A stretch of DNA of 64,000 nucleotides, taken from contig CAWAGQ010000011.1 of the NCBI GenBank assembly GCA_963781585.1, positions 96,001-160,000 on the forward strand, in the 5' to 3' direction. This DNA is from an uncultured Gemmatimonadaceae bacterium (GTDB lineage Bacteria > Gemmatimonadota > Gemmatimonadetes > Gemmatimonadales > Gemmatimonadaceae). Below the pieces are notes generated by a model, which was not told the origin of the DNA, searched no databases, and worked only from the letters and a program-made list of their open reading frames with translations. A program made the translations under genes and the position numbers. Each line of letters opens with the position of its first letter. The first letter of the stretch is position 1. Positions 1,886-63,621 of this stretch are shown here, in pieces.

Positions 1886-3390
1886 GGCGTGGGCGCGTAC
1901 CAGGCCGCCGCCTCGCGTCCACGGCGGATCATCGCGTCGAGGGCCGCGCGGTCGAACAGGCGCCCGCGTGCCACGACCATCGCGATGCGGCGGGTATTGG
2001 CGATGTCGGCGGTCGGGTCGCCATCCAGCACGACCAGGTCGGCCACCGCGCCCGGCCGCACCGTGCCTAACGTGTCGGCGGCGCCGAGGAAACGCGCCGG
2101 GTTGATGGTCGCCGTGCGGAGCGCCTCGAGCGGCGTGAGCCCCGCGCGCACCAGCAGCGCCAGTTCGTCGTGCAGACTCTCGCCCGGAAGCGCGTGCTGG
2201 TTCGGCGTGTCGGAGCCCGCCAGCAGGCCCACCCCCGCGTGCTCCATCGTGCCCACCGTCCACAGCATGCGATCGTAGAGCTGCACCAGGGGATGCGAGG
2301 CCGGGCGCGGCTCGGCCGCCCACCCGTGCCAGGGTGTCCTGGGCGCCAGCAGGGCTGGAAGGTCGGGCGAGCTGCGCAGCAGGGAGTCGGGGGCGCGGAA
2401 GAGGACACCGTACATCCGCAGCGTGGGAATCTGCCAGGTGTGCGCGGTCGCCAGTTGCGCGAACAGTGCCTCGGCGCGCGCGTCGTTCCAGTAGGCCAGC
2501 GGCAGCGTGACCGGATACTCGGCGTGCTCCACCAGATGCAGCTTCCACAGGACGCGCGCGTACCATGGGCGCGTGGTGTGCCAGGTGGTAAGGCGGCGCA
2601 CGAACCACTCGCGTCGTGTGCAGGCGAGCAGCACGCGCGACAGGTGGTCGTCGGCGTGCTGCCCCAGGGCGGAAGTCTCCCAGAGGGAGCGGTTACCGGG
2701 GACCAGCCCTTCGAAGGGAAGCCCTGCTTGTCGCGCCGTCACCGCCAGCGTGTCGAGAAGCGTCCCGTCGAAGCTGCCGCTCAGGTACAGTGCATCCACC
2801 CCCTCACGCCGCAACGCACCCACCGCATGAGCGACGTCGGCGGCGCTGCGAAGCGGCTCGGTGGTCGCATTGTCGGTGTCCTGTGTCGCGAGTTTGGGGC
2901 CGGTGTAGACGATCCGTGGGCCGATGCGCCGCCCCTGCGCGATGGCGTCGCGCCATTGCGCGAGCGTCGTGGTCGCACCGGCGATATCGCGTACCCCGGT
3001 CACGCCCCAGGCCACGAAGAGGGGGTGGAAGAAGGCGGCGTTGGAGTCGACCGGGAGCCGCTTCGACATCGAAAGCGCTTCCTCGACGTGCATGTCCCAG
3101 AGGCCGGGAATCACGTAGCGGCCCGCCGCGTCGACAATACGCGCGCCGCGGGGCGGAGCGCCGGCGCTATCTACCCCCGTGATGTGCTCACCCGTGAGGA
3201 CGACGGTCGCGTTGCGATGCTGTGCCCCCGTCGCCACGTCGATCACGGTCGCGTGCACCAGAGCCACTGGATGCTCCACGCCGGCCAGCCGCTGGGCGCC
3301 GACAGACGCCGGCACGGCCAGCAGCGCCGCCAACCGCCGCGCACCTTGCATGAGCGGGGCATGGGGCCGCATCCACGACACGATCGACAT
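1882..3390 (-). CDS. Amidohydrolase family protein, probably exported
   Basis: VDAAGRYVIPGLWDMHVE, LLAGSDTP, EALRTATINPARFLG and GAVADLVVLDGDP motifs; GGAG upstream of ATG 3390. Confidence 0.85.
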   Translation of the reverse strand: MSIVSWMRPHAPLMQGARRLAALLAVPASVGAQRLAGVEHPVALVHATVIDVATGAQHRNATVVLTGEHITGVDSAGAPPRGARIVDAAGRYVIPGLWDMHVEEALSMSKRLPVDSNAAFFHPLFVAWGVTGVRDIAGATTTLAQWRDAIAQGRRIGPRIVYTGPKLATQDTDNATTEPLRSAADVAHAVGALRREGVDALYLSGSFDGTLLDTLAVTARQAGLPFEGLVPGNRSLWETSALGQHADDHLSRVLLACTRREWFVRRLTTWHTTRPWYARVLWKLHLVEHAEYPVTLPLAYWNDARAEALFAQLATAHTWQIPTLRMYGVLFRAPDSLLRSSPDLPALLAPRTPWHGWAAEPRPASHPLVQLYDRMLWTVGTMEHAGVGLLAGSDTPNQHALPGESLHDELALLVRAGLTPLEALRTATINPARFLGAADTLGTVRPGAVADLVVLDGDPTADIANTRRIAMVVARGRLFDRAALDAMIRRGREAAAWYAPTP

Positions 3391-3618
3391 CGACTGCTCC
3401 AGGTTCGTCCAGATTGTCAGGTCCACGAAATATCCCGCGCGGTGTCGGCAATTCCAACCAGCGGGTGGGTCAACTCAACCTCGTGCGTCACCGTATCTTG
3501 TGGCGTGGAGTTGTCGCAACAGGGGGCTGCAGGTAGCATGCCTGAAAGGGGCGAGCCCGGCGCCCCCGACATGTCTCGGACGGCAGCCTGGTCGCCGGCA
3601 TGCCGTGGCCCGAAAGCC

Positions 3619-3634
3619 GGGCACCGCCCTTGCT
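3619..3634 (+). promoter_or_regulatory. Possible sigma-54 (-24/-12) promoter for the 3717-8623 operon
   Basis: GGGCAC-N5-TTGCT versus consensus TGGCAC-N5-TTGCW, about 80 bp upstream of the first gene. Confidence 0.4.
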
Positions 3635-3716
3635 CCCGGAAGGAGCGGTGAACGCCGATGGCATCCACGCGCGATCCCGTGTCCCGGCGGCGGACGTGAG
3701 CGTCTACGAATCACGG

Positions 3717-5159
3717 ATGAGTGAACCCACCAAAACAGCCACGCGCGATTCGGTGAGCCGGCTTCCACGCATCGCGGTGCTGGGAGGCGGGCCCGCTGGT
3801 TGCGGCGCGGCGTACCAGCTGCGGCGCACCGGCAAGGCGACCGTTACCCTGCTCGAACGCCAGGACGTCGTGGGCGGCAATGCCGGGAGTTTCTTCTGGG
3901 GCGGCCAGTGGCTCGACTTCGGCTCGCACCGGCTCCACCACACCGTGGACCCCAGAATCCTGGCCGACATCAGGCAGATGCTGGGCGCGGATTTCAACGA
4001 CTTCCAGCGCCACGGCCGGATCCGCCTGCGTGGCCAGTGGCTCCACTTCCCCATCCAGACGATCGACCTCCTGCGCCGCCTCGACAAGGGCTTCGCGTTG
4101 GGAATGGCGCGCGACATGGTGATGCGAAAGCTCGCGAAGCCTGACGAGGGCGACACGTTCGCCTCGGTCCTGCTGGCGAACCTGGGGCCGACGATGTGCC
4201 ACCACTTCTACTTTCCGTATGCACGGAAGTTGTGGGGGCACGAACCGGAAGTGCTGTCGGGGACCCAGGCGCGAAAGCGCGTCACGGCGGGGAGCTTCGG
4301 AAAGCTCATCAAGCGGATGCTGCGCCCCGTCGGGGGCGGCAACTACTACTATATGCGTCGCGGCTACGGCCAGATCAGCGCCACCTACGCGGAGCAGGCT
4401 CGGCTCGCGGGGGCGGAGATGCTCCTGGGCTGGGCGGCGTCGCGAATTGAGCGCATACCGGACGGCGGCGGCGCCTGGCGGATCACGGCCGAGCGCAACG
4501 GCGAGCGGCGCACGATCGACGCGGACTTCATCTGGTCGACGATCCCGATCACCCTGCTGGCGCGCATGGTGCAGCCGGCGGCGCCGCCGCAGGTGCTCGA
4601 GGCGGCGAGCGCAATCGGGTACCGCGCGATGGTGCTCGTGTACGTCCAGCTACCGGTGTCGCAGTTCACCACCACCGACGCGCACTACTTCCCCGAGGAG
4701 AACGTGCGCGTCACGCGCCTGTCGGAGCCCAAGAACTACTTCCGGCTGCAGGAGCCGGTCGGGACGACGGTCCTGTGCGGCGAGTATCCGTGCCGCGTGG
4801 ACGACGAGATCTGGTCGGCCAGCGACGATCAGCTGGCGGAACGCCTGGCGAAGGACGCGGCCACGGCGGGGATCCCGTTCCCGGCGCGCCCGACCGACGT
4901 GAAGGTGCGCCGGCTGCGTCAGGCGTATCCCGTGTACCTGCGGGGATACGAGAAGCCGTTGCAGGCACTGGACGACTGGGTGGCGAGCCTTCCCGACGTC
5001 CTTGTGTACGGGCGCCAGGGGTTGTTCGCCCACGACAATACGCACCACGCGTTGTACATGGCATACTCCGCCGTGGACTGCCTCAACGGGATGATCTTCG
5101 ATCAGGCGCGGTGGAAGGACTACCGCAGGATCTTCGCGACGCATGTTGTCGAGGACTGA
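3717..5159 (+). CDS. FAD-dependent oxidoreductase (HemY/UDP-galactopyranose mutase-like, glycan-cluster type)
   Basis: IAVLGGGPAG Rossmann motif, LLER..VGG, DFGSHRLH and C-terminal YGRQGLF; start MSEPTK chosen. Confidence 0.85.
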   Translation: MSEPTKTATRDSVSRLPRIAVLGGGPAGCGAAYQLRRTGKATVTLLERQDVVGGNAGSFFWGGQWLDFGSHRLHHTVDPRILADIRQMLGADFNDFQRHGRIRLRGQWLHFPIQTIDLLRRLDKGFALGMARDMVMRKLAKPDEGDTFASVLLANLGPTMCHHFYFPYARKLWGHEPEVLSGTQARKRVTAGSFGKLIKRMLRPVGGGNYYYMRRGYGQISATYAEQARLAGAEMLLGWAASRIERIPDGGGAWRITAERNGERRTIDADFIWSTIPITLLARMVQPAAPPQVLEAASAIGYRAMVLVYVQLPVSQFTTTDAHYFPEENVRVTRLSEPKNYFRLQEPVGTTVLCGEYPCRVDDEIWSASDDQLAERLAKDAATAGIPFPARPTDVKVRRLRQAYPVYLRGYEKPLQALDDWVASLPDVLVYGRQGLFAHDNTHHALYMAYSAVDCLNGMIFDQARWKDYRRIFATHVVED

Positions 5160-6669
5160 GCCGCTCGGAGAGGGAACGGCGAGGGGAGACGCGTGGAGTG
5201 ATGCCGGGGCGCCTGCGACGCCTGACGCGGCGACGCCGTGGCGGTTGCTGCTCGCCATCACGGTGCTGGCGACGGTGGCGCGCGCGATCGGACTCAACGA
5301 CGGCCTGTGGATCGATGAGATCTACTCCCTGGTGCGGTCGTTCCGCACACCACTGGGACAGATCCTCACCGAATTCTGGGGCGACAACCACCACCCGCTG
5401 TACGCCGTGCTCGCGCACGCAAGCCGCGGGGTGTTCGGTGAGTCGGCGTGGAGCATCCGGCTGCCAGCGCTTCTCTTCGGGGTGGCGGCGGTACCGGCAC
5501 TGTTCGCACTCGGGCGATTGGTGGTCTCGCGCCGAGAGGCGCTCCTGGCCGCGACGCTGCTGGCCGTCTCCTATCACCACGTCTGGTTCTCGCAGAATGC
5601 CCGCGGATACAGCGCGATTGCATTCTTCGCGATCGTGCTCATGTGGGCGCTGCTGCGCGGGATGGCAACCGGACGGCTCGCGTATTTCGCGTGGTATGGC
5701 GTGGCGGCAGGGCTGGGCGCGTATACCCATCTCACGGTGGTGTTGATCGTGGCCGGGCATGCGATCGCCGGACTGCTGGTGCTGCCGCGGGTTCCGGCGG
5801 CCGAGCGCGGGAGTCGGTTCCGGGGCCTCCTGCTGGCGATGGGCCTGGGCGCGGCTCTGACGGTCGTCCTCTACGCCCCCATGCTCGGGTCGGTGATCCA
5901 CTACTTCCTGCACTCGCCCTCGGGCCTGCAGGGTGTCTCCACACCGCGGTGGGCTTTGCTCGAGGGGATCCGGGTGCTCGTGCTCGGGCTCAGTGGAGGA
6001 GTTCGTGTGGTGGGGGCCGTGGTGGTTGTGGCCGGAGTGCTGGTGGGGGTCGCGGGGGTGGTTTCCATCTGGCGACGATCCCCCCTCTTCATCCTGCTTC
6101 TGGTGGTGCCCGCCCTGGTGACGAGCGCCGGGGCGGCGGCGGCGCGGGGTACGCTCTATCCGCGATTCTTCTTCTTCGCTATCGGGCCGGCAATCGTGGT
6201 CGCGGTGCGCGGCACGTTCGCCGCCGGAGCGTGGCTGTCGACCGGGCTTGGCCGAGCGCCCCTCACCGGTGTGCGGCTCGCGACCGCCGCTGTGGGTGGC
6301 GTGATCGCACTCTCGGCGGCGTCGTTGATGCTGGACTACCGATACCCCAAGCAGGACTACGCCGGCGCGATGCACTACGTGCTGGCGCAGCGCGTCGCGG
6401 GGGACAGCGTGGTTTCCATCGGAGTCCCGGCCGACCCATACCGCACCCTCTACGGGCAGGTCTGGCCGAACGTGAAGACCGCCGAACAGCTGGACTCGAT
6501 CCGGGCGTCCACGAAACGGACGTGGGTGCTCTATACCTTTCCGCGCTACGTCGAGGGCCAGGACCCGGCCATGTGGGCCACCCTGCGGGACGAGTGTGCA
6601 TCCCCGCGCGTCTTCCGGGGGACGGTGGGTGGAGGGGATGTTGTGGCGTGCCTGCTCAGCGAGAAATGA
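5143..6669 (+). CDS. GT-C fold membrane glycosyltransferase (GT39/PMT_2-like)
   Basis: [20 protein letters not shown] and SQNARGYS motifs; many transmembrane segments. Confidence 0.85.
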
Positions 6670-7631
6670 CCAAACTCATCATCCAGATCCCCTGCTTCAA
6701 CGAGGCCGCGACGCTGCCACCGACGCTGCGCGACCTGCCGCGGACGCTGCCCGGGGTGGACGTGATCGAGTATCTGGTGATCGACGACGGCAGCCGCGAC
6801 GACACGGCGGCGGTGGCCCGCGCCAACGGTGTGCATCACGTGGTGCAGTTCGAGCGCAATCGCGGGCTCGCGGCAGCCTTCATGGCCGGCCTCGACGAGT
6901 CACTGCGGCGGGGGGCCGACATCATCGTCAACACCGACGCCGACAATCAGTACCAGTCGGCAGACATCGGACAGCTGATCGCCCCGATCCTCGCTCACCG
7001 CGCCGAACTGGTAGTGGGAGATCGCGGGGTGGCGAAGCTGCCGAACTTCTCGTCGATCAAGCGCCGGCTGCAGGTCTTCGGCAGCTGGGTGATTGGCCGG
7101 GCCGCGGGGCTGGAGACGCCGGACGCCACCAGCGGTTTCCGCGCCCTTTCGCGTGAGGCTGCGCTGCGGATGCTCGTGCTCAGCAATTACTCGTACACGC
7201 TCGAGTCACTCATCCATGCCGGTTCGCGCCGGGCGGCGGTGGAGTTCGTGCCGATCGGGATCAATCCGCAGACGCGTCCGTCGCGCCTGATGAAGTCCAT
7301 CCCGCACTACATCAGGAACTCGGGCCTGACGATCGTTCGCGCCTACGCCATGTACCGGCCCCTGCGCGTGTTCTCCGTCCTCGGGCTCTTTCTGATCGCG
7401 CTTGGCATCATTCCGGGACTGCGGTTCGTGGGGTTCTACCTCTCGGGTCAGCGCACGGGACACATCCAGTCGCTCATCCTGGCGGCGATCCTCATCATCG
7501 TGGGCGTCCAGGCCCTGCTCATGGGTCTGCTGGCCGACCTCATTGCGGCGAACCGCAAGCTGCTGGAGGAGGCGCTCTACCGGGTCAGGCGCCTGGAGCT
7601 CGGCGACCGTGCGGGAGGGGAGGGCCGTTGA
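6666..7631 (+). CDS. GT2 glycosyltransferase (polyprenol-phosphate sugar synthase-like)
   Basis: [23 protein letters not shown] and DATSGFRA motifs; two C-terminal TM helices; ATGA overlap with the upstream gene. Confidence 0.9.
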
Positions 7632-8623
7632 CCACCGCGCCGGCGCGGCGGTCGCTGTTCCGTCACCCCCTGGTACGCGTGGCTGGAAGCGCGACGATCC
7701 TCGGGCTCCTCTTCATCGCGCTTCCGTTCCACGACATCACGACCGCGGTGCGGAGCGTGCCGTTAGGCGTCTGGCCGGGCGCGCTCGCGATGTACATGAC
7801 GTTGCACCTGGTGGGCGTCACCAAGTGGCGGTTGCTGGTGAACACGGCCGGCGCCGGACTCCCGTTCCGGACCGCGGCGCGGGCGTACTACATGGGGCTG
7901 TTCGGGAACACCTTCCTTCCGTCGATCGTCGGTGGGGACGTGGTGCGGGCCGGGGTCGCGCTGCGCGCCGCGCGCTCGAAGAGCGGGTTGGTGCTTGGCA
8001 GCCTGGTGGACCGACTGCTCGACGTGGTGGGCCTGGCCGGCGTGGCTGGTATCGGGGCGGTGCTGTCGCCTCGCGCCCTCGACGACCGCAGCCGGCGCAT
8101 TTTCCTCACGCTTGGCGTCCTGCTCGCTGTGGCGGGACTCGGCGCGCTCGTGGCGATCACGCTGACCCCGGTGCGTCGCTTCCCCTGGAAGGTGCGTCGC
8201 ACGCTGGTGCAGGTACGGCGCGCCTTGCGCGCCACGCTGCGTCGTCCCCAGGCGATCGTGGGCGCCTTCCTGCTCGGCATGCTCCTGCAGTCGCTGCTCA
8301 CCATCCTCAACTGGTGGCTCGGGCGGTTGATGGGCATCGACATTCCGGTCTACGTCTGGCTCTTCGTCTGGCCTTTGGCCAAGATCGCTGCGCTCCTGCC
8401 TGTCACGCAGAACGGCATTGGCGTCCGCGAGGCGGCGCAGGCGGCCCTCTTCGCGCCGTTCGGCGTCTCGGCCGCTCGTGCGGTCGCCACCGGACTCGTG
8501 TTCGAGGTGGTGCTGATCAGCGGTGGACTTCTGGGCGGCGCGCTGGCCTTCCTGTTGAGCGGGAGTCGGGCCGAGCGGCACGCGCTCCGCGCGTCAGCGT
8601 CGGTGTCGCCGGGCGCTGGTTAG
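7628..8623 (+). CDS. LPG synthase TM-domain / YbhN-like flippase
   Basis: [24 protein letters not shown] and [13 protein letters not shown] motifs; multi-pass membrane protein. Confidence 0.85.
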
Positions 8624-8632
8624 GCGAGAGAA

Positions 8633-8744
8633 TCGGCGATCAGCGATCAGAAATCAGCGGGCAGAAGACAGCGATCAGCGATCAGCGGTCAGCGGTCAGC
8701 AGTCAGCGGTCAGCGGTCGGCGATCCGTGGTCAGCGATCAGCGG
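8633..8744. repeat. Degenerate heptamer tandem array (TCAGCGR x16)
   Basis: Sixteen consecutive 7-bp units fill the gap between two convergent genes. Confidence 0.9.
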
Positions 8745-8759
8745 TGCGCGTCGACGCGG

Positions 8760-10808
8760 TCACGGGCTGCGCACTCGCGGTCCTTCCTCGTCGCCGGTCA
8801 GCTTCGGAATCTGCTCCGAGCTTACGATGTCGGGGGCTGTCGATCCAGGCGGCAGCGGTCCGGCGATGATGCGATAGCCGGACCCGGTGAGCGTGGGACC
8901 ATCGAGGATGTAGACCGGCCGGTCGGGATAGGCAGCCACGACCGCGGCCCGGATCGCCGGCGACCGATCCCAGGCGAAGATGGTGGTGTCCGCGCGGAGG
9001 TCGAGCGGATTGGCCAGTGCCGCCTCGTGATAGTCGGGGCTGCGGAGCCCGCGGACCAGGACCAGCGACCGACCCAGGGGATGCTCGTGCACGAAGGCGC
9101 GCATCTCGCCCCCCATGTATCGGTAGCCGTCGTATTTCTCTACCGCGCGCCAGGGAACCCAGACGGTGAGCGCCGCAGCGGTGAGCGCCGCCATGGCGAG
9201 GAGGGCGCGCCGCGAGCCGGGCGTGTCGTCGCCGAAGAGGGCGTCAGGCGCCCGCGCCGTGAGGACCACCGCGGGGACGATCAGCAGGAACCAGTATCGC
9301 GCGCCGAAGTCGGGACCTCCGCTGAACCAATACAAGGCATGCAATCCGGTCACCAGTACGATCACGCCGAGCATCGAGAAATCCAGCGCGCGCAGTCGCC
9401 GGCTGCAGACCACCGCCACCAGGAGCACCAACGACCCGGTGGCCCACGCGAAGAGCTCGAGGTTGAGCGCCGAGCCATTGAGGAGCGAGTTGACGACCAC
9501 GTCGCGAAGTCCGTGACCCGGGAAAGGATCGAGCCCGGGCCATCCCATCCCACGGTTCGGACCGAATCCGAGGTCGTTCGCGCCCGGGTGATAGTACTTG
9601 TCGACGTACATCATGATCGGGAAGCGCGACGGCGATCCCGTGAGCCGTGCGTTGTAGGGAAGTACGAGGAGCGCGGTGAGGGCGGTGAACGCGGTCAGCG
9701 CGGCGCTCGGCAGGAGACGGTGCCAGCGGCTGCGTGCACTGAGCGACCAGAGGCCGAGGGTGACGGCGACGATCAGGCCCTCGAGCGGACGAATCAGCGA
9801 GACGGCTCCGGCGGCAACGCCCGCCAGCGCCGCCGGCCACGCGGCTTTTCGTTCGCGCGCCACCGCCACTCCCAGCGCGGCGGCGATGGCGCAGGTGAGC
9901 GACGCGGTGTGCGTCATGAAGCTCATGCCGAGGAACAGGAACCACGGCGAGGTGGCGAGGAGGAAGGTCGCCACGCGCGCCTGGCGCACCGGCATCAGCC
10001 GGCGCGCCAGGCCGTGCAGGAGCAGGACGGCAACGCCGCTCAGCAGCGGGTTCACCAGCCACGGCACTCCGGCCCGGACGCCTAACGAGAGAATGGCGGG
10101 CCAGCCGGGCGGGACCGGGGAGAACCAGCGCTGCGCGTCGTAGTACATCAGGTCGACGTCGAAACCCGCCGGAACCGGCGGCAGGGCGAGCTGGAATCTG
10201 CCGGCCGCGAAGTAGCGCGCGTGCAGAAGGTAGACCACCTCGTCCGGGAGGTGCGGTATGTGCTCCCAGACAGTGACCGCGAGCACCGCGCAGACAAGGG
10301 CGGCAAAGACGGCGGCCGCCACCGCCGGCCGCTCGAGGAAGCGCCCCGTCTCGCGGCGGTCGGACGGCCCCAGCACCGCAGCCAGCCATCCGCCGTCGGC
10401 GACGCGCGCGAGCGCGACGACGTTCATGAGGGCGACGAGCTGGATTGCCGCGCCGAACAGCAACTCGGCGGCGTAACGCGAGATGTCGCGTGACGGTGCG
10501 GCCGCCACCGCTACCAGCGTAATCACCGCCAGAGCGAGTGCGACGGGACCAAAGCGAGCGCGCAGCCACGTTCGCGCGGTGCTCCAGGTCCCTCGCCAGC
10601 CCCACACGACGACTACGGCCTGCACGGCCAGAACCGCGGCAGCCAGCGCCCCCCTCCAGTGCAGGAACCGCTCGAAGCGATAGTGCTGCCAGGTGATGCC
10701 CTTCCCGGAACCGACCAGGGCGACCGCCGCGCACTGACCGAGGATCAGGAGCGCCAGCCACAAGCCGGTCGTCCCGCGGCCGCGCTCGGGCGCGGATTCC
10801 GGGCTCAC
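8760..10808 (-). CDS. GT-C fold membrane glycosyltransferase (ArnT/PMT-like)
   Basis: PHLPDEVVYL, PPGWP, SFMTH, IRPLEG and GARYW motifs; many TM segments; GTG start overlaps the upstream TGA. Confidence 0.8.
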   Translation of the reverse strand: MSPESAPERGRGTTGLWLALLILGQCAAVALVGSGKGITWQHYRFERFLHWRGALAAAVLAVQAVVVVWGWRGTWSTARTWLRARFGPVALALAVITLVAVAAAPSRDISRYAAELLFGAAIQLVALMNVVALARVADGGWLAAVLGPSDRRETGRFLERPAVAAAVFAALVCAVLAVTVWEHIPHLPDEVVYLLHARYFAAGRFQLALPPVPAGFDVDLMYYDAQRWFSPVPPGWPAILSLGVRAGVPWLVNPLLSGVAVLLLHGLARRLMPVRQARVATFLLATSPWFLFLGMSFMTHTASLTCAIAAALGVAVARERKAAWPAALAGVAAGAVSLIRPLEGLIVAVTLGLWSLSARSRWHRLLPSAALTAFTALTALLVLPYNARLTGSPSRFPIMMYVDKYYHPGANDLGFGPNRGMGWPGLDPFPGHGLRDVVVNSLLNGSALNLELFAWATGSLVLLVAVVCSRRLRALDFSMLGVIVLVTGLHALYWFSGGPDFGARYWFLLIVPAVVLTARAPDALFGDDTPGSRRALLAMAALTAAALTVWVPWRAVEKYDGYRYMGGEMRAFVHEHPLGRSLVLVRGLRSPDYHEAALANPLDLRADTTIFAWDRSPAIRAAVVAAYPDRPVYILDGPTLTGSGYRIIAGPLPPGSTAPDIVSSEQIPKLTGDEEGPRVRSP

Positions 10809-12214: not shown

Positions 12215-12254
12215 TCGTCTCAGGAGGGTGGTGTGTGGAAAATATGCGCTTCAC

Positions 12255-12341
12255 CCGCGGTGCGGCGCTGATTCGGTGGGAATCCGCGGTGCGGCGCTGA
12301 TTCGGTGGGAATCCGCGGTGCGGCGCTGATCCGGTGGGAAT
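12255..12341. repeat. 29-bp tandem repeat x3 (CCGCGGTGCGGCGCTGATTCGGTGGGAAT)
   Basis: Copies start at 12255, 12284 and 12313, with one substitution in copy 3; no spacers; lies in a divergent intergenic region. Confidence 0.95.
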
Positions 12342-12537
12342 CCGGTGCCGCGTGCGCGGCGCGAATCCGGTGCGCTCCTTGCAGTCCGCATTCCCGATGC
12401 CACATCGTCGACTACCATTCTTCATTCCAGCGGTGATCTTCAACCGGCGCGACAAGATCGGCTTACCGGTCCCCTCACCGAATGGCGGCGCGACTCCATC
12501 CCCGACGTCGTTGGCGATTCCCAGCCCAGGGCGCGGC

Positions 12538-17286: not shown

Positions 17287-17660
<374 letters not shown>

Positions 17661-52539: not shown

Positions 52540-52540
52540 C

Positions 52541-53242: not shown

Positions 53243-53543
53243 GCGCGCCCGCCTCGTCGATCAGGGTCGCGACGTAGTCGGAGAAGGTGCCCACGGTGCG
53301 AAACGGGCTCTTCGCCTGCGACATTGCGCGTTCGTCCGCCAGAGTGACGTGTACCTCGTGCGCCTCGGCCAGCCGCTGTTCCACTTCCAGGATGAGACGT
53401 ACCAGTCCCAGCGAGTCGAGTACCGCGGCCCGCCCGAGCAGGCGGGTTTCATCGGTAAGGGGATCGGCCGGCAGCGCGTCCTGTTCCTCCAGCACGTCGT
53501 GCAGACATGCTGCCACCAGATCCCTGATTCCCGTTCTGTCCAT
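53229..53543 (-). CDS. Acyl carrier protein
   Basis: About 104 aa, acidic, with LDSLGLV phosphopantetheine site and SPFRTV; GAGGAG RBS. Confidence 0.85.
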   Translation of the reverse strand: MDRTGIRDLVAACLHDVLEEQDALPADPLTDETRLLGRAAVLDSLGLVRLILEVEQRLAEAHEVHVTLADERAMSQAKSPFRTVGTFSDYVATLIDEAGAHGGR

Positions 53544-53551
53544 GGCTCCTC

Positions 53552-56397: not shown

Positions 56398-56496
56398 CGA
56401 TTGCTGGTGGAGCCGTGTCGCACCACGGCGGGCCTCTCGGGAGTACAGGAACGCTCAGTACGGTAAGCAATCGCTGGCGCGTTGGATACTGCCGGA

Positions 56497-56780
56497 CTAC
56501 CCAGCGCGCTTCCCGGATGGTGGCGGCTGCAGCCGGGTGAGCACGTCCAGCATCCCCGGAGACAGATCGGTGTGGTGATGGGTCATCTTCCACCCTCCGG
56601 CTTCCCGCTTGTACACATTCGTCACGCGATGCTCGATGGAGAGCCGATGCCCGGCGAGCGTGAACTGTGCGGCCTCGACGCCGATTTCGTACGCCATGTC
56701 GCCGGTGACATCGATGAGCTGATCCTTCAGCTGGATCTTTCCGTCCGACGCCAGTTGAGCGACCTGGTCGAACGATGCCT
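56497..56780 (-). pseudogene. YybH/SnoaL-like (NTF2-fold) protein, 5'-truncated
   Basis: GDMAYEIGVE...RVTNVYKREAGGWKMTHHHTD; the upstream part of the ORF does not look family-like. Confidence 0.6.
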
Positions 56781-57003
56781 TGCCGGCTCGATCGCCGCTC
56801 TGGGGACTGGCTGCTCCAGGAGGCGGCGCTACCAATCCACCACAGTTCGTCAGGGATCGACGGACACGTAAATGGACCGCCCCTGCACCACGCGTCACCG
56901 GGCGAAACGGCGGCGGGTTGCCGACCGTTGTAGATACGCAGACCACCGAGGCCCGAATCCCGTTTCCCACCCGGGCTCCGACAACGTGCTGACGGGAGAA
57001 CGC

Positions 57004-59421
57004 ATGCCCGACTTGCGCTTCAGCATCCGAATGGCCGTGCGTGCCCTGCGTGCCGCACCGCTGGTTTCACTGCTCGCCATCTTCTGCATCGGACTGGGCA
57101 TCGGCGCGGTCACCACGGTCTACAGCACCGCGTCCGCGTTCACGTTTCATCCGTTGCCACAGCTCGCCGACCCGGACCGACTGCTCATCGTGGGCGACGC
57201 TCCGGCCAAGTCGCCCACCGCCAACTCGACGATCGCCGCAGGCACGTTCACGGACCTGGCGTCGCTCGGGGAATTCACCGTCGTCGCCGCGCTGACCGAC
57301 TTCACCGCCAACATCGCCGGTGACGATCTTCCTGAGCGCGCCAGCGGAGTGCGGGTCAGCGCCGGCTTCTTCCGACTGACCGGTCGCTTGCCGATGCTCG
57401 GACGCGCCTTCCTCCCGGAAGAGAACGAGCCGGGGGCCGATCGCGTCGTGATCCTCTCGCACGGCCTCTGGCAGCGCCGCTTCGGGGGCGACCCCGCCAT
57501 CGTGGATCGCACCGTCCGCATCAACGGCGAAGCCTGGAAGGTCGTCGGAGTGATGCCCGAAGACTTCGTCTTCCCAGCCGGCACGCAGCTCTGGGTCCCG
57601 CTCGCGCTCTCGCCGGTGGAGGCGGCCGATCGCGGAGACCGGAACCTCTTCACGATGGGTCGGCTCGCTGCCGGTGTGAGCGAAGAGGGCGCCGCGCTGG
57701 CAGTCCGCTCCCTCGGCTCGCGTCTGGCCGCGACCTGGCCCGACGCGTACAAGGACCGCGTCCTCTCCGCGCAACGCGCCGAAGCGATCTTCGGTGAAGG
57801 ACCGCGTCCGTTCATGATGGTGCTGATCGGTGCGGTGGTGTTCCAGTTGCTGATCGCGTGCGCCAACGTCGCGAACCTGCTGCTGGCGCGCGCTACGGGC
57901 CGGCGGCGCGAAACGGGTGTGCGGATCGCCCTCGGCGCGTCTCGCGGCCGACTGGTGGGACAACACCTCACCGAGAGCCTGCTGCTCGCACTGGCCGGCG
58001 GCGCCCTCGGAGTGCTGCTGGCCTGGTGGGGCGTCAGGGCCACCGCGGCGACGGTGCCCGTCGAAGTGCAGCAGTACATCCCGGGATTCGGTGCGATCCA
58101 CCTGGATGCGCGCGCCCTGGTGGTGGCGGCCACGGTGTCCATGTTGTCCGGCGTTCTGTTCGGGATCGTCCCGGCGCTGGCCGGCTCCAACGTCGACGTG
58201 GTCGCGTCCCTCAAGGATGGGGGACGCGGTGAGTCGCGCCGCTCCGCGCTGCGGCGGCTCCGGTCGAGCCTGGTGGTGGGAGAGATCGCGATGGCGCTGA
58301 TCCTGGTCGCCGGCGCCGCCCTCATGGTATCCACGTTTCGCCGGTTGTCGGTGGCCTACCCGGGTTTCCGCACCGAGCATGTTCTCACCGCCGCGGTGAC
58401 GCTTCCACAACGCGACTATCCTGACGACAGCGCAGTCGTGCGGTTCTGGGATCGCCTGCGTGTTGCGACCGCATCGCTCCCCGGTGTGGAAGCGGCCGAA
58501 CTGACTACCGTCCTGCCGATGTCCTGGAATGACCAGCGGGCGCAGTTCTACGTCGAGCACGAGCGCCCCCAGCGGTTGGAGGACGTTCCGTCATCCGGCA
58601 TCCGGCGCGTGTCGGCGGGCTTCCTCCGGGCTCTCGACGTAACCCTGGTTCACGGCCGACTGTTCGAGTCCACTGATGCGCAGGATGCCCCGGGTGTCGC
58701 GATTCTCTCGGAGCGGGCGGCGAGACGCTACTTTCCCGGCGGCGACGCCGTGGGCCGGCGGCTGGTGTGGCGCGAGCGGCCGTTGGAAGTGGTTGGCATC
58801 GTGCACGACGTGCGCGCCAACCCGCTCATGTCCAAGGAGCCGCTCGACGTCGTGTACGTGCCGCTGGCGCAGTGGGTATCCCGCACCGCGTCCCTTGTCA
58901 TTCGTTCCCGGCAGGAGCCTGCTTCGCTCGCCCCTGCGCTTCAGGCGGCCATCGGTCGGCTCGATCCACGGCTCGCGGCCGGCGATGTCGCTCCCATGGA
59001 GCGCGTGATCGCCTCGGCAACGTCCCCGCAGTCCGCAACGGCGCGGATGCTGATGACGTCGGCGCTCATTGCCCTCGTCATGGCGGCGGTCGGAACCTAC
59101 GGCGTGATGTCGTACGTCGTGGGACGCCGCGCTCACGAAATGGGAATCCGGGTGGCCCTCGGCGCCACGCACGGCAGCGTGGTCCGTCTGGTTGTCGGCA
59201 GCGTCGCGCGCCTTACCGGGGTTGGGGTGGTGTTCGGCCTGCTGGGGTCGCTGGCGCTCGGTCGCGGGATGCAGGCCATTCTGTTCGATACCAGCCCGTC
59301 AGACCCACTGGTGCTCAGCGGCGCCGCGCTGCTGCTCGGGATGATCGCGGTTTCCGCGGGGTACTTTCCCGCCCGTCGCGCCGCCACGGTCAACCCGCTG
59401 GTCGCGCTGCGCGGCGATTGA
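57004..59421 (+). CDS. ADOP / duplicated MacB-FtsX ABC transporter permease
   Basis: LGIGAVT, LWQRRFGGDP, LLIACANVANLLLAR, RIALGASR and EMGIRVALGA motifs. Confidence 0.93.
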   Translation: MPDLRFSIRMAVRALRAAPLVSLLAIFCIGLGIGAVTTVYSTASAFTFHPLPQLADPDRLLIVGDAPAKSPTANSTIAAGTFTDLASLGEFTVVAALTDFTANIAGDDLPERASGVRVSAGFFRLTGRLPMLGRAFLPEENEPGADRVVILSHGLWQRRFGGDPAIVDRTVRINGEAWKVVGVMPEDFVFPAGTQLWVPLALSPVEAADRGDRNLFTMGRLAAGVSEEGAALAVRSLGSRLAATWPDAYKDRVLSAQRAEAIFGEGPRPFMMVLIGAVVFQLLIACANVANLLLARATGRRRETGVRIALGASRGRLVGQHLTESLLLALAGGALGVLLAWWGVRATAATVPVEVQQYIPGFGAIHLDARALVVAATVSMLSGVLFGIVPALAGSNVDVVASLKDGGRGESRRSALRRLRSSLVVGEIAMALILVAGAALMVSTFRRLSVAYPGFRTEHVLTAAVTLPQRDYPDDSAVVRFWDRLRVATASLPGVEAAELTTVLPMSWNDQRAQFYVEHERPQRLEDVPSSGIRRVSAGFLRALDVTLVHGRLFESTDAQDAPGVAILSERAARRYFPGGDAVGRRLVWRERPLEVVGIVHDVRANPLMSKEPLDVVYVPLAQWVSRTASLVIRSRQEPASLAPALQAAIGRLDPRLAAGDVAPMERVIASATSPQSATARMLMTSALIALVMAAVGTYGVMSYVVGRRAHEMGIRVALGATHGSVVRLVVGSVARLTGVGVVFGLLGSLALGRGMQAILFDTSPSDPLVLSGAALLLGMIAVSAGYFPARRAATVNPLVALRGD

Positions 59422-59634
59422 GTGATCGGCTCGGCTCGGCTCATGCTCTCGCTTCGCGGTGGCCGTCCCTCGATTTGGTGAGCGCCACGACGGAGCTGGT
59501 CCGCGAAGGAAAGGTCCGCTTCCGGCGAGGCGATGATGGCGATGCTGGACCGGTAGCCCGCGCTGCAGGCGCGGTGATGCCCGCAGATGCCTAACGCCTA
59601 TTTTGTGGTTTTTTTTGTGGCGGCGGCTTCGCGG

Positions 59635-60012
59635 TCACTCCTTGTTCGGCGGCGTCATGAGGATGACGCCCTTCCCGCCATCAGGATCCAGGCAGTCCCC
59701 CTGGTAGCTCCGGTCCTGGCGCAGCATGAGCGTGCAGTTCACGACCGGACCCGGCGTGAACTTGAAAGTGATCCGATCCGCCAGGATTCTGATATCGCTC
59801 AGCAGCTGCGAGCCCATCGGTCCGGCGTTCATCGTGATCTTCGTCGAGTCGCCGCTGGCCGCCACGTCGAACGTGACCTGGAGCACCGCGCCGTTCGGCG
59901 GCGTCACCGTACCGGTCCACTGGCCGGTCTCGAGCTTCTGCGCCGCGACCGCTGCAGGCGCGAGCAGCAGGATCACGCACGGCAGCAGGAACGACTTCGA
60001 TCGACGGGGCAT
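59635..60012 (-). CDS. Hypothetical exported beta-rich protein
   Basis: AGGAG RBS, signal peptide, GQWTG motif and two Cys. Confidence 0.7.
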   Translation of the reverse strand: MPRRSKSFLLPCVILLLAPAAVAAQKLETGQWTGTVTPPNGAVLQVTFDVAASGDSTKITMNAGPMGSQLLSDIRILADRITFKFTPGPVVNCTLMLRQDRSYQGDCLDPDGGKGVILMTPPNKE

Positions 60013-60229
60013 GTCGGTCTCCTGGAGGGGGGTGTCCAGCGTAAGCGATGGCTCAACGACCCGGGCAATCGGGTCTTCGGCAGCCCGGAGGGTGTGGTCA
60101 TGTCGGCATTTGTGTTGCGACGATCTCCATCGTCCGGAGTTTCCGGCCGGCGGAATGACAAAGCGTCAGGAGGGCAGCTTCGGCCGGTCGAGACGGACGA
60201 CGCGAATGTGGCTGGACCAGCAGTCTGTC

Positions 60230-61087
60230 TCACATCGGATGCCGTGACAGGAAACCGGCAATCGCCCGAGCTGTCGCCGCGGGGGCCTCGATAGGGAACA
60301 TGTGTGTCTGCCCGGGGAATTCAACGAATTCCATCTCCGGCCACCATGCGGTGGCCGAGTCGACGGTTGCGGCGCGTTCCTGCGAGATGTAGAGGATCGG
60401 CGCGGTGATGCGCCGCGCCCGCGCTGCGTCGAGCTTCCACGCTCCCAATGCGATCCACTCGACCGTGTTGAATCGACGTTCGTCAGTTCTGGCCTGCTGA
60501 AGGGCGCCGGGCAGCTGTGCGTCCAATAGTCCTCTCAGACCCGGGGCGCCCTTGTTCAGCAGGAATGCCTCCACGCTGTCGGCTCCGCCGGTCCGTGGCC
60601 GGAGTGACCGCGCTTGCGCGAAGCCGAGCGGCGGGTCGAGCAGGACAAGCGTCTGGACCATATCCGGAAACGCAGCGGCCATCTCAATGGCCACGATTCC
60701 GCCGGACGAGTGGCTAATGACGTGGGCGCGGGCAATTCCAAGGTGCCGGAGGAGCGCGGCCGCATCGGCCGCGTCCTGCGCCACGCTGAACGAGTCACCG
60801 GCGGCCGAGCTGCCAGCGTACCCTCGCCTGTGCACGCGGATCAGGCGGTAACCAGACAAGGCCGGTTCGTCGCTGAGCGGACGCAACAAGTCCGCGATGA
60901 GCGCCCCATGAATGAGAAGCACGGCTTCACCATGACCTCGTACTTCGTACTCGAGTCGACCGCCTGGCACGGGGGCGTATTGAAGGCCTGTGGCAGGCTG
61001 TTGTCCGACGGCCGAACCGACCGACATGAGTCCGATGGCGACCATCGCCAGGCAGACATCGCGGATAGCAAGGCGATTCCAGCTCAT
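60230..61087 (-). CDS. Alpha/beta-fold hydrolase with signal peptide, in a cassette-like position
   Basis: LLIHG, RRGYAGS, SHSSGG nucleophile elbow and C-terminal His; AGGAGG RBS; starts 25 bp after GTTAGGC. Confidence 0.88.
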   Translation of the reverse strand: MSWNRLAIRDVCLAMVAIGLMSVGSAVGQQPATGLQYAPVPGGRLEYEVRGHGEAVLLIHGALIADLLRPLSDEPALSGYRLIRVHRRGYAGSSAAGDSFSVAQDAADAAALLRHLGIARAHVISHSSGGIVAIEMAAAFPDMVQTLVLLDPPLGFAQARSLRPRTGGADSVEAFLLNKGAPGLRGLLDAQLPGALQQARTDERRFNTVEWIALGAWKLDAARARRITAPILYISQERAATVDSATAWWPEMEFVEFPGQTHMFPIEAPAATARAIAGFLSRHPM

Positions 61088-61112
61088 CGCTTGGTGCCTC
61101 CTGATTCAGGTC

Positions 61113-61205
61113 GCCTAACGTCGTGCGCTTCTGCTGCGGCGACCTATTGGAGCAAAGGCTATTCTATTGCTGTACGACCGCCCGCAGCAAGCGCACGCCG
61201 CTCAC
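61113..61205 (-). other. Degraded attC site
   Basis: Minus strand: GTGCGCTTGCTGCGG...CCGCAGCAGAAGCGCAC-GAC-GTTAGGC; the R'' box has lost AAC. Confidence 0.65.
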
Positions 61206-61594
61206 GTTTGAGCCCGTTGCCGGTCCTGACGACCACCTGACTCCGGCGGGCCAACGAATCGGGTTGTGCTGCGGGCCGCCACCTGGCCGCCTGGTTGAGC
61301 CGATAGTCGCTGGCGACGTCTCACTCCACGGTACTTCACTACGCCGTATTCCGTGATCACCAACTCTACTTGCCCATCGGGCAAGCGGCGGAATGCGGCC
61401 CGCCAGTCGCGGTAGAACGGAGGCACGCAGGATCCGTCTGTTTGCTTCAACATGCGCGCGCCGAACATGAATGGCTGGCCGGCCTTCTCCGAAACAATGG
61501 CGACACGTTGCCGTGTGTCCGGATCGACATCCCCGCCGAGCAATGGCAGCCACTCATCACGAGAGACCGGGTCTGCTCAATGCCTGGGACAAGG

Positions 61595-62227
61595 TCAGCC
61601 GCGCGTCATCCGCCGCTGCACGTGCTTCAACCGCAGATGCTCCTCCCGCTCCCGTTCCTCCAGCGTCTGCTTGAGGTTCAGAATCTGCGCGTTGAGCTGC
61701 GGCGCCACGCGCTGCTCCAGCGTCCGCACCCGCCGCGAGCACGACGCCACCGCTTCGCCGATCCGGCGGATGCGCTGCTCCGCCGCCGCCGCGTCGAGCA
61801 ACAACTCCGCCAGCGACTCGAACCGCGACGCGGTCCGCGAGGTCGTGGGTCCGGTGGTTCCGGGCGCCACCCCCCGCGCGTCGAGCGTTCGTTTCAGCGG
61901 AGGACGCTCGGCGATGTCGGAGACGCTGATCCCCCACACCTGCTCCGGCACCACGCGCAGCGCGATCGTGCGCGGCGGCCACGCCAGCGCGCGCAGCTCC
62001 GCGCGTCCATGTGCCGCGAACGCACCCAGCAGCCCGGCGTACGCCTCCGAAAAACCGTCGGCGATTCGCGCGCGCATGTCCACCGCCGGGCGCGCGAGAT
62101 GGAACAGCTCCCGCACCAGCGCCTCGCGCTGCCGCCGCAGCAGCACCGTCCCCTTGTCCACCTGCGCGAGCTGACGCCGCACGCGCAGCAGATTCACGCG
62201 GGTCGCGGCAAGACGCACGGCGTTCAT
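61595..62227 (-). CDS. atpD: V/A-type ATP synthase subunit D
   Basis: TRVNLL, G..LLRRQREAL, RRVRTLE and LEEREREE..RLK motifs. Confidence 0.9.
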   Translation of the reverse strand: MNAVRLAATRVNLLRVRRQLAQVDKGTVLLRRQREALVRELFHLARPAVDMRARIADGFSEAYAGLLGAFAAHGRAELRALAWPPRTIALRVVPEQVWGISVSDIAERPPLKRTLDARGVAPGTTGPTTSRTASRFESLAELLLDAAAAEQRIRRIGEAVASCSRRVRTLEQRVAPQLNAQILNLKQTLEEREREEHLRLKHVQRRMTRG

Positions 62228-63621
62228 GCGTGGCTCCTCTCACCGACGGCCGGACCCGAGCGCGCCTGCCACGTGGCATCGCTGATCCGGATCAGATCCT
62301 CCCGCGGCAGCTGCTCCAGTAGCGTCCAACCGAGCTGCAACGTGTCCTGCATGGACCGTCGGTGCGTTCCCTGCGCCACGAACTCGCGCTCGAATCGCTC
62401 GGCGAACGCGAGCGCGCGCCGGTCTTCCGGCGGCAGCCCGCCCTCGCCGAGTATCGCGGCCATCGTTCGCGCCTCGCGGCCGCGCGCGTACGTGGCGTAG
62501 AGCTGGTCCGACCACTCGCGGTGATCGGCACTGGTCTTGTCCCGTCCGATGCCGGCGTTCATGAGTCGCGAGAGTGACGGAAGCACGTCGACCGGTGGAT
62601 ACAATCCGCGTCGATGCATCTCGCGATCGAGCACGATCTGTCCTTCGGTGATGTATCCGGTGAGATCGGGAATCGGGTGCGTGATGTCATCGTCAGGCAT
62701 GGTGACGATGGGGATCTGCGTGATGGAGCCGGACCGGCCGCTCAGCACGCCGGCCCGCTCGTAGAGACTGGCCAGGTCGGTGTACATGTAGCCCGGATAG
62801 CCCCGCCGGCCCGGGATCTCCTCGCGCGCGGTCGCGATCTCGCGGAGCGCCTCGCAGTAGTGCGTGAGATCGGCGATCACCACCAGCACGTGCATCCCCA
62901 TGTCGAACGCCAGGAATTCCGCGGCCGTGAGACCGAACCGCGGCGCGAGCAGACGCTCGACCGCCGGATGACTGGCTTCGTTGAGAAACAGCGTGGTCCG
63001 CTCCAGCGCGCCGCTGCCGCGGAAGCGGTCGAGAAACTCGTCGGTTTCGCGCGCGGTGATGCCGACCGCCACGAACACCACCGCGAACGGCTCGCCGTGC
63101 GGCGCGCGTGCGCCCTCGACGATCTGGGCCGCCAGCTGCAATCCGGGAAGCCCCGGTCCGGCGAAGATCGGAAGCTTCTGCCCCCGCACCAGGGTATTGA
63201 GTCCGTCGATCGCCGAGATGCCGGTCTCGATGAAGTCGTTAGGCCTGGCGCGGCGCGCGGGGTTCATCGGCGCCCCTTCCACGGAGCGGATCGCCTCGCC
63301 CACCGGCGGCGGCAGCCCGTCCACCGGAACGCCCGCCCCGCTGAACGCGCGCCCCAGCAGCTCGCGTCCCACGACCGAGGTCGCCACATCGCCCGTCAGC
63401 GTGATGTCCGCGATCATGGGGGCGAGACCGACCGTGTCGTCGAGCACCTGCACTACCGTGAACCGCTCACCCGCCTCGATCACCTGCCCCCGCCGGTCGA
63501 CCTGACCGGGCGCCCGAACGGTGACCCATTCTCCCAGCGCGGCGCGATGCGTGCCGCCCAGAAACAGGAGTGGCCCCGCCGCCGACCGCGCGCCGCGATA
63601 GGTGCGTGGAATCCGGCTCAC
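62224..63621 (-). CDS. atpB: V/A-type ATP synthase subunit B
   Basis: NTLVRGQKLPIF, PGRRGYPGYMYTDLASLYERAG and DDITHPIPDLTGYITEGQI motifs. Confidence 0.96.
   Translation of the reverse strand: MSRIPRTYRGARSAAGPLLFLGGTHRAALGEWVTVRAPGQVDRRGQVIEAGERFTVVQVLDDTVGLAPMIADITLTGDVATSVVGRELLGRAFSGAGVPVDGLPPPVGEAIRSVEGAPMNPARRARPNDFIETGISAIDGLNTLVRGQKLPIFAGPGLPGLQLAAQIVEGARAPHGEPFAVVFVAVGITARETDEFLDRFRGSGALERTTLFLNEASHPAVERLLAPRFGLTAAEFLAFDMGMHVLVVIADLTHYCEALREIATAREEIPGRRGYPGYMYTDLASLYERAGVLSGRSGSITQIPIVTMPDDDITHPIPDLTGYITEGQIVLDREMHRRGLYPPVDVLPSLSRLMNAGIGRDKTSADHREWSDQLYATYARGREARTMAAILGEGGLPPEDRRALAFAERFEREFVAQGTHRRSMQDTLQLGWTLLEQLPREDLIRISDATWQARSGPAVGERSHA

Follow-up and report, generated by a model that had tools for sequence, protein, structure and literature searches.

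Why should a single eight-base word recur within unrelated genes of a G+C-rich genome, at codons that are otherwise rare in it? The question was raised by a 64,000-nucleotide stretch of DNA from an uncultured Gemmatimonadaceae bacterium (contig CAWAGQ010000011.1, positions 96,001 to 160,000; hereafter the window, meaning this whole stretch), which has a G+C content of 67%. The octamer CGTTAGGC occurs in it as 19 exact copies, 7 on the plus and 12 on the minus strand; its reverse complement is GCCTAACG, and the word is not a palindrome. An earlier description made from the letters alone (the sequence-only reading) had given this count, this strand split and the coordinates of the copies, all of which were exact. 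Our analysis shows that the word is a clade-specific feature imposed at the level of the DNA, and that point substitutions create it wherever they are tolerated, be it at synonymous rare codons, at stop codons or in spacers. Neither strand nor the direction of transcription or replication affects its placement; orthologous sites retain it, and recently acquired DNA lacks it. As for its role, we tentatively favor, by analogy and at somewhat short of even chances, an orientation-free, clade-specific DNA tag that would accumulate as DNA uptake sequences do. New beyond the sequence-only reading are a sister word, (T)CGTCAGGC, a far higher density in the relative Gemmatirosa kalamazoonensis, and the identity of the octamer with the commonest end box of integron attC sites in that relative.

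The abundance of the word was compared with several null models. For words of its composition, a zero-order model predicts 2.42 copies in the window, within the earlier estimate of 2 to 3, while Markov models of order 2 and 3 predict 0.48 and 0.49, and the octamer ranks first among all 8-mers. Dinucleotide-preserving shuffles (n = 100) gave a mean of 1.11 copies and a maximum of 3, with 0/100 reaching 19. Synonymous codons were shuffled 300 times inside each of 47 called genes (57.8 kb). These genes were called from open reading frames (ORFs), from the pattern of G+C content at third codon positions (GC3) and from Pfam matches, and the calls without Pfam support rest on GC3. Fifteen coding copies stood against 0.68 expected (standard deviation 0.86, z 16.7), which again made the octamer the top 8-mer. 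The sequence-only reading had named an observed-to-expected ratio near 1 under a codon-preserving null as grounds for abandoning it; the ratio is far from 1. Furthermore, the octamer accounts for 19 of the window's 40 TTAG/CTAA tetramers. Its one-mismatch forms are mostly not enriched, the exceptions being CGTCAGGC (20 copies) and CGTTCGGC (11 copies), both of which are spelled by common codons. The near-matches described earlier at 8618, 21104 and 39237 were found to be GGTTAGGC, ACCTAACG and CCCTAACA, with one, one and two mismatches, respectively.

The 25 bases on either side of the 19 copies contain no shared sequence, and a search for a longer motif around CGTTAGGC (the T form) yielded no extension. 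As the flanks share nothing, the word is a sharply bounded 8-mer and not part of a repeat element. A repeat family or mobile element was ruled out, the flanks of the 19 window copies and of 778 copies in Gemmatirosa (see below) being unlike, except for a codon periodicity and a purine at +1. The gaps between the window copies are more regular than random (coefficient of variation 0.60, P 0.013). A neutral compositional cause, in which the word would have no function and its excess would follow from codon usage, from dinucleotide or context-dependent mutation bias, or from hidden repeats, is close to excluded. Compositional biases in this DNA are strong, and CGATCG-type words are likewise very common in the window; however, codon and dinucleotide shuffles produce 0.68 and 1.1 copies, the flanks have nothing in common, most one-mismatch forms lack enrichment, the change from CTG or CTC to TTA takes two AT-ward substitutions in a genome of 67-73% GC, and orthologous copies are conserved, as described below.

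The 19 copies and their settings are as follows, with codons separated by hyphens:

2065..2072, minus strand: ACG-TTA-GGC in an amidohydrolase gene (1882-3426, minus)
7761..7768, plus strand: CCG-TTA-GGC in an LPG_synthase_TM gene (7628-8623, plus)
10080..10087, minus strand: TCG-TTA-GGC in a PMT_2 gene (8760-10808, minus)
16187..16194, minus strand: TCG-TTA-GGC in an ORF without a family (14240-17668, minus)
19295..19302, minus strand: GCG-TTA-GGC in a creatininase-family gene (18386-19336, minus)
22286..22293, minus strand: antisense to a gene (22159-23571, plus), read there as GGC-CTA-ACG
29913..29920, plus strand: intergenic, upstream of a gene (30071-30991, plus), directly after a TTGACA box and an 11-bp inverted repeat
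32368..32375, minus strand: GCG-TTA-GGC in a DUF6259 gene (31054-33396, minus)
33704..33711, plus strand: antisense to a gene (33488-34861, minus), read there as AGC-CTA-ACG
38689..38696, plus strand: C-GTT-AGG-C in an ORF that is a probable gene (37940-39061, plus)
41764..41771, minus strand: GCG-TTA-GGC in an ORF with an uncertain start (41323-41940, minus)
43493..43500, minus strand: TCG-TTA-GGC in a DUF5916/CBM9 gene (43076-45358, minus)
44251..44258, plus strand: antisense in the same DUF5916/CBM9 gene, GGG-CCT-AAC-GCG
45200..45207, plus strand: antisense in the same DUF5916/CBM9 gene, CGC-CTA-ACG
50930..50937, minus strand: GCG-TTA-GGC in a GNAT-like gene (50525-51202, minus)
54077..54084, minus strand: GCG-TTA-GGC in a polysaccharide deacetylase gene
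59589..59596, minus strand: intergenic, downstream of a MacB/FtsX gene (56872-59421, plus), with a GC-rich hairpin on one side and a T-run on the other
61113..61120, minus strand: intergenic, between the start of a hydrolase gene (61087) and the end of the V-type ATPase (V-ATPase) D gene (61595)
63237..63244, plus strand: antisense in the V-ATPase B gene (62224-63621, minus), AGG-CCT-AAC-GAC, with other codons in relatives

Within window genes, ten copies are read as NCG-TTA-GGC, three as xGC-CTA-ACG and two as G-CCT-AAC-G, in addition to GTT-AGG at 38689. The sequence-only reading had placed 16 copies inside genes. The registers are as it listed them, while the number of copies within genes ranges from 14 to 16 because it depends on the gene calls. 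Two copies are insecure: a stricter call leaves the copy at 41764 upstream of its gene, and the ORF around 38689, which has no Pfam family, is coding-like in its GC3 pattern only (G+C of 0.72/0.55/0.81 at the three codon positions).

The leucine codon TTA makes up 18 of 2044 leucine codons in the window, compared to 10 of 22 in the context NCG-Leu-GGC (Fisher p 8e-17). An absence of this preference was the other outcome that would have spoken against the sequence-only reading, and its proposal that the constraint acts on DNA and not on protein is borne out by the choice of rare codons specifically where they complete the word. Among sites able to carry the word with the protein unchanged, 10/61 of the type [SPTA]-L-G and 2/9 of the type x-P-N-[VADEG] were occupied, as were 3/38 of the type [CRSG]-L-T and 0/33 V-R sites. 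When the window was pooled with five related loci (see below), occupancy was 24/229 in sense and 7/82 in antisense orientation (p 0.83). The excess of copies co-oriented with genes thus reflects common peptides, not transcription.

Several other candidates were rejected. A transcription-linked orientation fails on these pooled counts and on those of Gemmatirosa (338/2028 sense compared to 205/832 antisense, the latter being if anything higher). A protein-level motif was ruled out, as the word is not confined to one frame (it uses four), to one strand or to genes. For terminator pairs, the closest pair in the window is at least 758 bp apart, and the close inverted pairs of Gemmatirosa are mostly attC sites. 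Finally, the word is not a deamination product of CGTCAGGC, since a conserved Ala-Leu-Gly site in V-ATPase B shows TTA derived from leucine codons and not from serine TCA.

How far the word extends beyond this genome was explored in 80 loci fetched around V-ATPase B homologues from a genome collection, in which the closest V-ATPase B genes belong to Gemmatimonadaceae metagenome-assembled genomes (MAGs; 73-76% identity). At least two copies of CGTTAGGC were found in five of the 80 loci, namely L005 (9 copies), L022 (9), L026 (4), L019 (3) and L006 (2), all labelled Gemmatimonadaceae. Of the remaining 75 loci, six low-GC loci contain one copy each and 69 contain none; among the latter are other Gemmatimonadales loci (L063, L072-L077), with a G+C content of 70-76%. 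The lineage specificity suspected earlier was therefore confirmed in these loci: the word is dense in some Gemmatimonadaceae and missing from other Gemmatimonadales.

Conservation at orthologous sites, a check that the sequence-only reading had proposed, gave a clear result. In a pairwise alignment of L005 and L022 (77% identity), 5/8 T copies are kept, compared to 14.4% of all 8-mers (p 0.002). Similarly, L006 and L026 keep 2/2 T copies and 3/7 copies of the C form CGTCAGGC, that is, 5/9 against a background of 11% (p 0.001). Orthologous copies are thus conserved about four times above background. At the conserved Ala-Leu-Gly site of V-ATPase B, compared in 17 sequences, L006 and L026 read GCG-TTA-GGC and L019 reads GCG-TTA-GGT, while the other 14 sequences use CTG, CTC, CTT, CTA or TTG.

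In the V-ATPase B tree, the motif-bearing lineages do not form one clade. The tree says little about a single origin of the word, since the gene has been transferred between phyla. V-ATPase B sequences labelled Acidobacteriota, Myxococcota/delta proteobacterium and Thermoleophilia (L001-L004, L076) nest among those of Gemmatimonadota at about 70% identity, which suggests either inter-phylum transfer of the operon or mislabelled bins.

A protein search of a plasmid collection led to Gemmatirosa kalamazoonensis KBS708, whose plasmid 1 (1,106,233 bp) was analyzed whole. It carries 778 copies of CGTTAGGC (404 on the plus and 374 on the minus strand; 0.70/kb), compared to about 15 expected under Markov models of order 1-2, and 778 of the 1084 TTAG/CTAA tetramers on plasmid 1 fall within them. 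On plasmid 2, two samples of 50 kb contain 37 and 35 copies against about 0.6 expected; the density is the same on both megaplasmids. Beyond the codon periodicity and the purine at +1 already mentioned, the flanks on plasmid 1 show nothing more. Based on 886 ORF calls made from GC3, 543/778 copies lie within ORFs and 235 lie outside or across gene ends, which corresponds to 0.57/kb inside and 1.59/kb outside genes, a 2.8-fold difference. The registers are 312 NCG-TTA-GGC, 180 G-CCT-AAC-G, and 26 and 25 in the other two frames. Occupancy reaches 312/1264 for [SPTA]-L-G and 180/332 for x-P-N-[VADEG], 312 of 395 TTA codons fall within the word, and the stop codons of 91 of the 886 genes do so as well. 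The gaps are more even than random (coefficient of variation 0.88 compared to 0.998 +/- 0.036).

Two features of plasmid 1 affect how its copies are counted or read. The regions at about 9.5-25 kb and 62.6-78 kb, 53,060 bp apart, show identical motif spacing; this points to a large segmental duplication and a slightly inflated copy count. Tandem octamer arrays occur in ORFs at 1,005,342-1,005,432 (L101; 12-bp period, 7 copies) and at 735,994-736,030 (L095; 15-bp period, 3 copies). Iteron or centromere arrays were rejected as an explanation, as these arrays sit in ORFs and encode Pro-Asn-rich linkers of the (P-N-A-A)n type; they are therefore coding microsatellites that also spell CGTTAGGC.

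The complete replicon also bears on functions that depend on polarity. The octamer could be a hotspot or self-marker of the Chi type, read by RecBCD or AddAB, or a guide for FtsK similar to the FtsK-orienting polar sequences (KOPS). Like Chi of E. coli (GCTGGTGG) and KOPS (GGGNAGGG), it is an asymmetric octamer of the resident genome found about once per few kilobases (about 1 per 3.4 kb in the window) and restricted to resident DNA, and 12/19 window copies lie on the strand that bears 32/46 called genes. Known Chi and KOPS words are strand-skewed. For KOPS, the skew is described in PMC3384302. Chi and KOPS are polar to replication and spelled by common codons, whereas CGTTAGGC is strand-neutral and needs rare codons. 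The cumulative GC skew of plasmid 1 peaks near 350 kb and reaches its minimum near 1,025 kb; with origin and terminus placed from this weak skew on a megaplasmid, 408/778 copies are on the leading strand, and the intergenic copies are split into 120 leading and 115 lagging. The strand excess in the window vanishes once coding frames are counted (24/229 sense, 7/82 antisense), and the sister word shows the opposite excess (12 plus, 8 minus). The strand-neutral distribution in a complete relative replicon disfavors polarity-dependent functions, and we regard a Chi- or KOPS-like role as very doubtful. The list of possible functions in the sequence-only reading (recombination or repair, uptake, nucleoid-protein binding, modification), for which a comparison of strand skew with the replichores had been suggested, was thereby narrowed by its polar members.

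The sister word (T)CGTCAGGC, or C form, is enriched in the same lineages as the T form. In the codon shuffles, CGTCAGGC had 18 coding copies compared to 5.35 expected and was the next independent word after two unrelated words had been set aside. Its 20 copies in the window (4139..62698) start at the following positions:

plus strand, 12 copies: 4917, 9242, 14459, 14482, 18321, 23754, 24155, 28432, 41313, 45531, 47535, 62691
minus strand, 8 copies: 4139, 5220, 7324, 22959, 30880, 37048, 47810, 54781

Nine of the 20 copies read G-CCT-GAC-G with the rare proline codon CCT, which makes up 9/17 proline codons in xxG-Pro-Asp-Gxx compared to 64/1142 overall in the window (p 5e-8). A T precedes the C form (position -1) in 35/58 pooled copies. 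Its strand excess is opposite to that of the T form, and the two words together amount to 19 plus and 20 minus copies. Enrichment of the C form was found in the window, L019, L026 and L006, but not in L005, L022 or motif-free lineages. Whether T or C is used goes with the lineage, and the sister word TCGTCAGGC lacks the GTT triplet.

Close inverted pairs of the word in plasmid 1 revealed a family of elements about 97 nt long, each consisting of GCCTAACG, an inner hairpin and CGTTAGGC. Ten of them align at 84% identity, with compensatory changes in 8/32 pairs. In their fold, the word and its complement pair as an 8-bp outer stem; the spacer is unpaired, two bases bulge from the inner stem, and the loop is variable. 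This is the architecture of integron attC sites as described in PMC12614218. An attC site is an imperfect hairpin in which the R'' box pairs with R' and the L'' box with L', and which has extrahelical bases. A covariance model built from the ten aligned elements (R1) identified 84 attC sites on one strand of plasmid 1, of which 82 are located at 810,839-856,168 and two near 881 kb; the other 16 listed matches comprised 10 reverse-strand echoes and 6 weak matches elsewhere. An integron integrase adjoins the array (856,827-857,786, minus strand; TIGR02249, 423 bits at a cut-off of 265). Plasmid 1 thus carries a very large sedentary integron (L097-L098, 810,839-857,786) with 82 attC sites of uniform strand in 45 kb and two more about 25 kb away; this integron is already mentioned in the IntegronFinder 2.0 paper (PMC9024848).

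Among the 84 attC sites, 26 begin with GCCTAACG and 28 end with CGTTAGGC, which are the commonest variants, followed by CGTTAGAC (13 sites) and CGTTAGCC (10 sites). The integron core consensus is GTTRRRY for the R' box and RYYYAAC for the R'' box. GTTAGGC and GCCTAAC, contained in the octamer and its complement, fit this consensus, for which a random 8-mer has a probability of 0.004; at the two ends, 53 and 55 of the 84 Gemmatirosa attC sites fit it as well. In the cassette space between attC sites, about 37 kb contain only 3 copies of CGTTAGGC (p 1e-6).

In the window, model R1 placed 0/19 copies in an attC-like hairpin (best overlaps 12-13 bits, E > 1). Two attC-like hairpins were found elsewhere:

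25903..26022, minus strand: attC-like hairpin with the one-mismatch ends ACCTAACG ... GGTTAGGC (R1 20.2 bits, weak E-value)
26780..26872, minus strand: attC-like hairpin ending in CGTTAGGT (R1 19.9 bits)

They match the attC architecture weakly, whereas the 84 Gemmatirosa elements match it. Together they bracket, in the window, a GT2 glycosyltransferase ORF in a low-GC island (24374-27550, 62%), next to the orfA (24374-24679) and orfB (24676-25503) of an IS3-family element; the island resembles a cassette remnant that lacks an integrase. Exact copies of CGTTAGGC are absent from 22294-29912, a region that includes the IS3 element and the cassette-like island.

These results could mean that the octamer is an integrase half-site, with the scattered copies serving as docking or attG-like secondary insertion sites or as raw material for attC sites. 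An integrase does stand beside 82 attC sites whose commonest ends are the word and its complement, the fit to the core consensus is improbable by chance, two attC-like elements with one-mismatch forms lie in the window, and cassettes have been reported to insert at attG sites of the genome (PMC12614218, citing Loot et al. 2024). However, the other end variants are not enriched outside attC sites: CGTTAGAC has 35 copies on plasmid 1 compared to 25 expected, 13 of them in attC, and CGTTAGCC has 30 compared to 27.5, 10 of them in attC. The genome-wide specificity is therefore sharper than that of the integrase. In addition, TCGTCAGGC lacks GTT, and the scattered copies are single and double-stranded and, unlike attC or attG, lack a partner box, an L box and a hairpin. 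Insertion sites in conserved genes would be harmful, and no drive is seen that would create more than 700 copies. Taken together, the core variants without enrichment, the sister word without GTT and the scattered copies without hairpin make an integrase-driven origin unlikely, and we consider this explanation quite improbable. The coincidence between the attC end box and the genome-wide tag fits a convergence of the two.

A DNA tag accumulating in the manner of uptake sequences was ranked first because each of the properties described above is a published hallmark of such sequences (PMC1939737). The DNA uptake sequence (DUS) of Neisseriaceae is GCCGTCTGAA, and the uptake signal sequence (USS) of Pasteurellaceae is AAGTGCGGT / ACAAGCGGTC; fewer than 10 copies are expected, compared to 1471 and 1965 observed (PMC1939737). 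In the same source, uptake sequences show no orientation bias, a non-coding excess although most copies are in ORFs, and even spacing; they grow by point mutation of existing sequence and exist in two slightly different versions in related taxa. The corresponding over-representation, lack of orientation bias (on plasmid 1, with a skew-inferred origin) and non-coding excess with a majority in ORFs were found here. Like DUS and USS, CGTTAGGC is short, non-palindromic and over-represented tens to hundreds of times, lies mostly in ORFs with an excess in spacers, originates by point changes, has versions in sister taxa and has few one-mismatch relatives. Its density is lower than theirs in the window (0.3/kb) and similar in Gemmatirosa (0.7/kb).

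What defines an uptake sequence is that competent cells import DNA bearing it in preference to other DNA, a property that CGTTAGGC would share under this model. The competence machinery would include a DNA receptor, at the surface or in the periplasm, that prefers fragments carrying CGTTAGGC, and recombination of the tagged fragments would steadily swap alleles without the word for alleles with it. The resulting molecular drive would saturate each lineage's genome with a dialect of its own, CGTTAGGC or, in sister lineages, TCGTCAGGC. Since attC ends can spell CGTTAGGC, the cassette arrays of integrons would be taken up especially well; in Vibrio, natural transformation is reported to supply chromosomal integrons with cassettes (PMC12614218).

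Several points weigh against an uptake tag. Known uptake sequences are 9-12 bases long with weaker flanks, whereas CGTTAGGC is a sharp 8-mer without flanking signal, and it belongs to a different phylum with no known competence. Neither uptake or transformation data for any Gemmatimonadota nor a paper linking Gemmatimonadetes to uptake sequences was found. Pfam matches revealed no competence genes among the window genes, the only place where such genes were looked for. Polarity was assessed on a megaplasmid whose origin and terminus were placed by a weak GC skew. The fit to the integron core, which about 0.4% of random 8-mers would show, has no explanation under the uptake model. Moreover, all the genomic hallmarks listed, asymmetry apart, are common to the cyanobacterial highly iterated palindrome HIP1, for which no function is known (PMC5861425).

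The comparison with HIP1 (GCGATCGC) leads to a different explanation, in which the copies are kept by selection for an intracellular DNA-binding protein, either a nucleoid or chromosome-organizing protein or an orphan methyltransferase with a reader or repair partner. Both words are octamers with a 15- to 300-fold excess, lie inside genes and are conserved at orthologous sites; the over-representation of CGTTAGGC is within the range reported for HIP1, and conservation at orthologous sites was used to argue for selection on HIP1 (PMC5861425). The more even than random spacing and the equal density on both Gemmatirosa megaplasmids also speak for this explanation. However, HIP1 and its variants are palindromes tied to, and nested on, palindromic methyltransferase sites (PMC4390886), with a reported periodicity of 10-90 kb, whereas CGTTAGGC is asymmetric. 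The window contains no candidate protein and no DNA methyltransferase; its methyltransferase matches are only a small-molecule-type S-adenosylmethionine-dependent methyltransferase and Ogt. Repair of the very-short-patch type would favor C over T at position 4, but both forms are enriched. What separates this explanation from the uptake model is analogy; we consider it the main rival, possible although rather unlikely.

In a combined version of the uptake model, CGTTAGGC would be a shared address, namely a kin tag of an uptake or recombination system yet to be named and, at the same time, the core box of the sedentary integrons of Gemmatimonadaceae. We give this version only a small chance. 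If it were true, cassette arrays would be the best-tagged DNA in the cell and would be exchanged preferentially among kin, while the single copies, which number in the hundreds or about one per gene, would offer the integrase potential docking points for inserting cassettes or for turning genes into new cassettes. It would thus join uptake specificity, the spread of integrons and the unsolved origin of gene cassettes.

To our knowledge, only two bacterial families have established sequence-specific uptake tags, and HIP1 has gone decades without an explanation. CGTTAGGC is a third hyper-abundant word, from an under-studied soil phylum, and its function is directly testable because Gemmatirosa kalamazoonensis KBS708 is a cultured, fully sequenced carrier. 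Since it marks resident as opposed to recently acquired DNA, the word should be useful for binning and for the detection of horizontal transfer in Gemmatimonadota MAGs. That the word is identical with the commonest attC end box was unexpected (chance about 0.4%) and offers a handle on the co-evolution of integrons and host genomes. A literature search for the word, its complement and degenerate forms, made outside subscription journals and REBASE, returned only primers and unrelated text.

The window also encodes a TonB-dependent receptor with a CarboxypepD_reg domain, a MacB/FtsX permease, a Ser/Thr kinase-TPR protein, V-ATPase subunits, sulfatases and glycosyltransferases. An Rfam scan of the window reported one tRNA and nothing else; this tRNA-Arg (48498-48571) is the sole tRNA backed by both ARAGORN and Rfam. 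ARAGORN additionally placed a tRNA-Pro(CGG) at 48939-49017 (minus strand), inside a sulfotransferase ORF (48696-49727), which Rfam did not report at its gathering score. At 29860-29912, the 11-bp inverted repeat CAGATTCTTGA...TCAAGAATCTG overlaps the TTGACA box directly before the octamer copy at 29913, and the two are probably the operator-promoter of the gene at 30071-30991. In a related Gemmatimonadaceae MAG, L019 contains about 13 units of the 7-bp microsatellite ATGCCTG (11393-11470). Finally, a 29-bp tandem duplication at 12260-12330, upstream of the PMT_2 gene, carries ATTCGGTG, which was found 10 times in the window (8 coding copies compared to 1.09 from codon shuffles) and 5 times in the 1.1-Mb Gemmatirosa plasmid.

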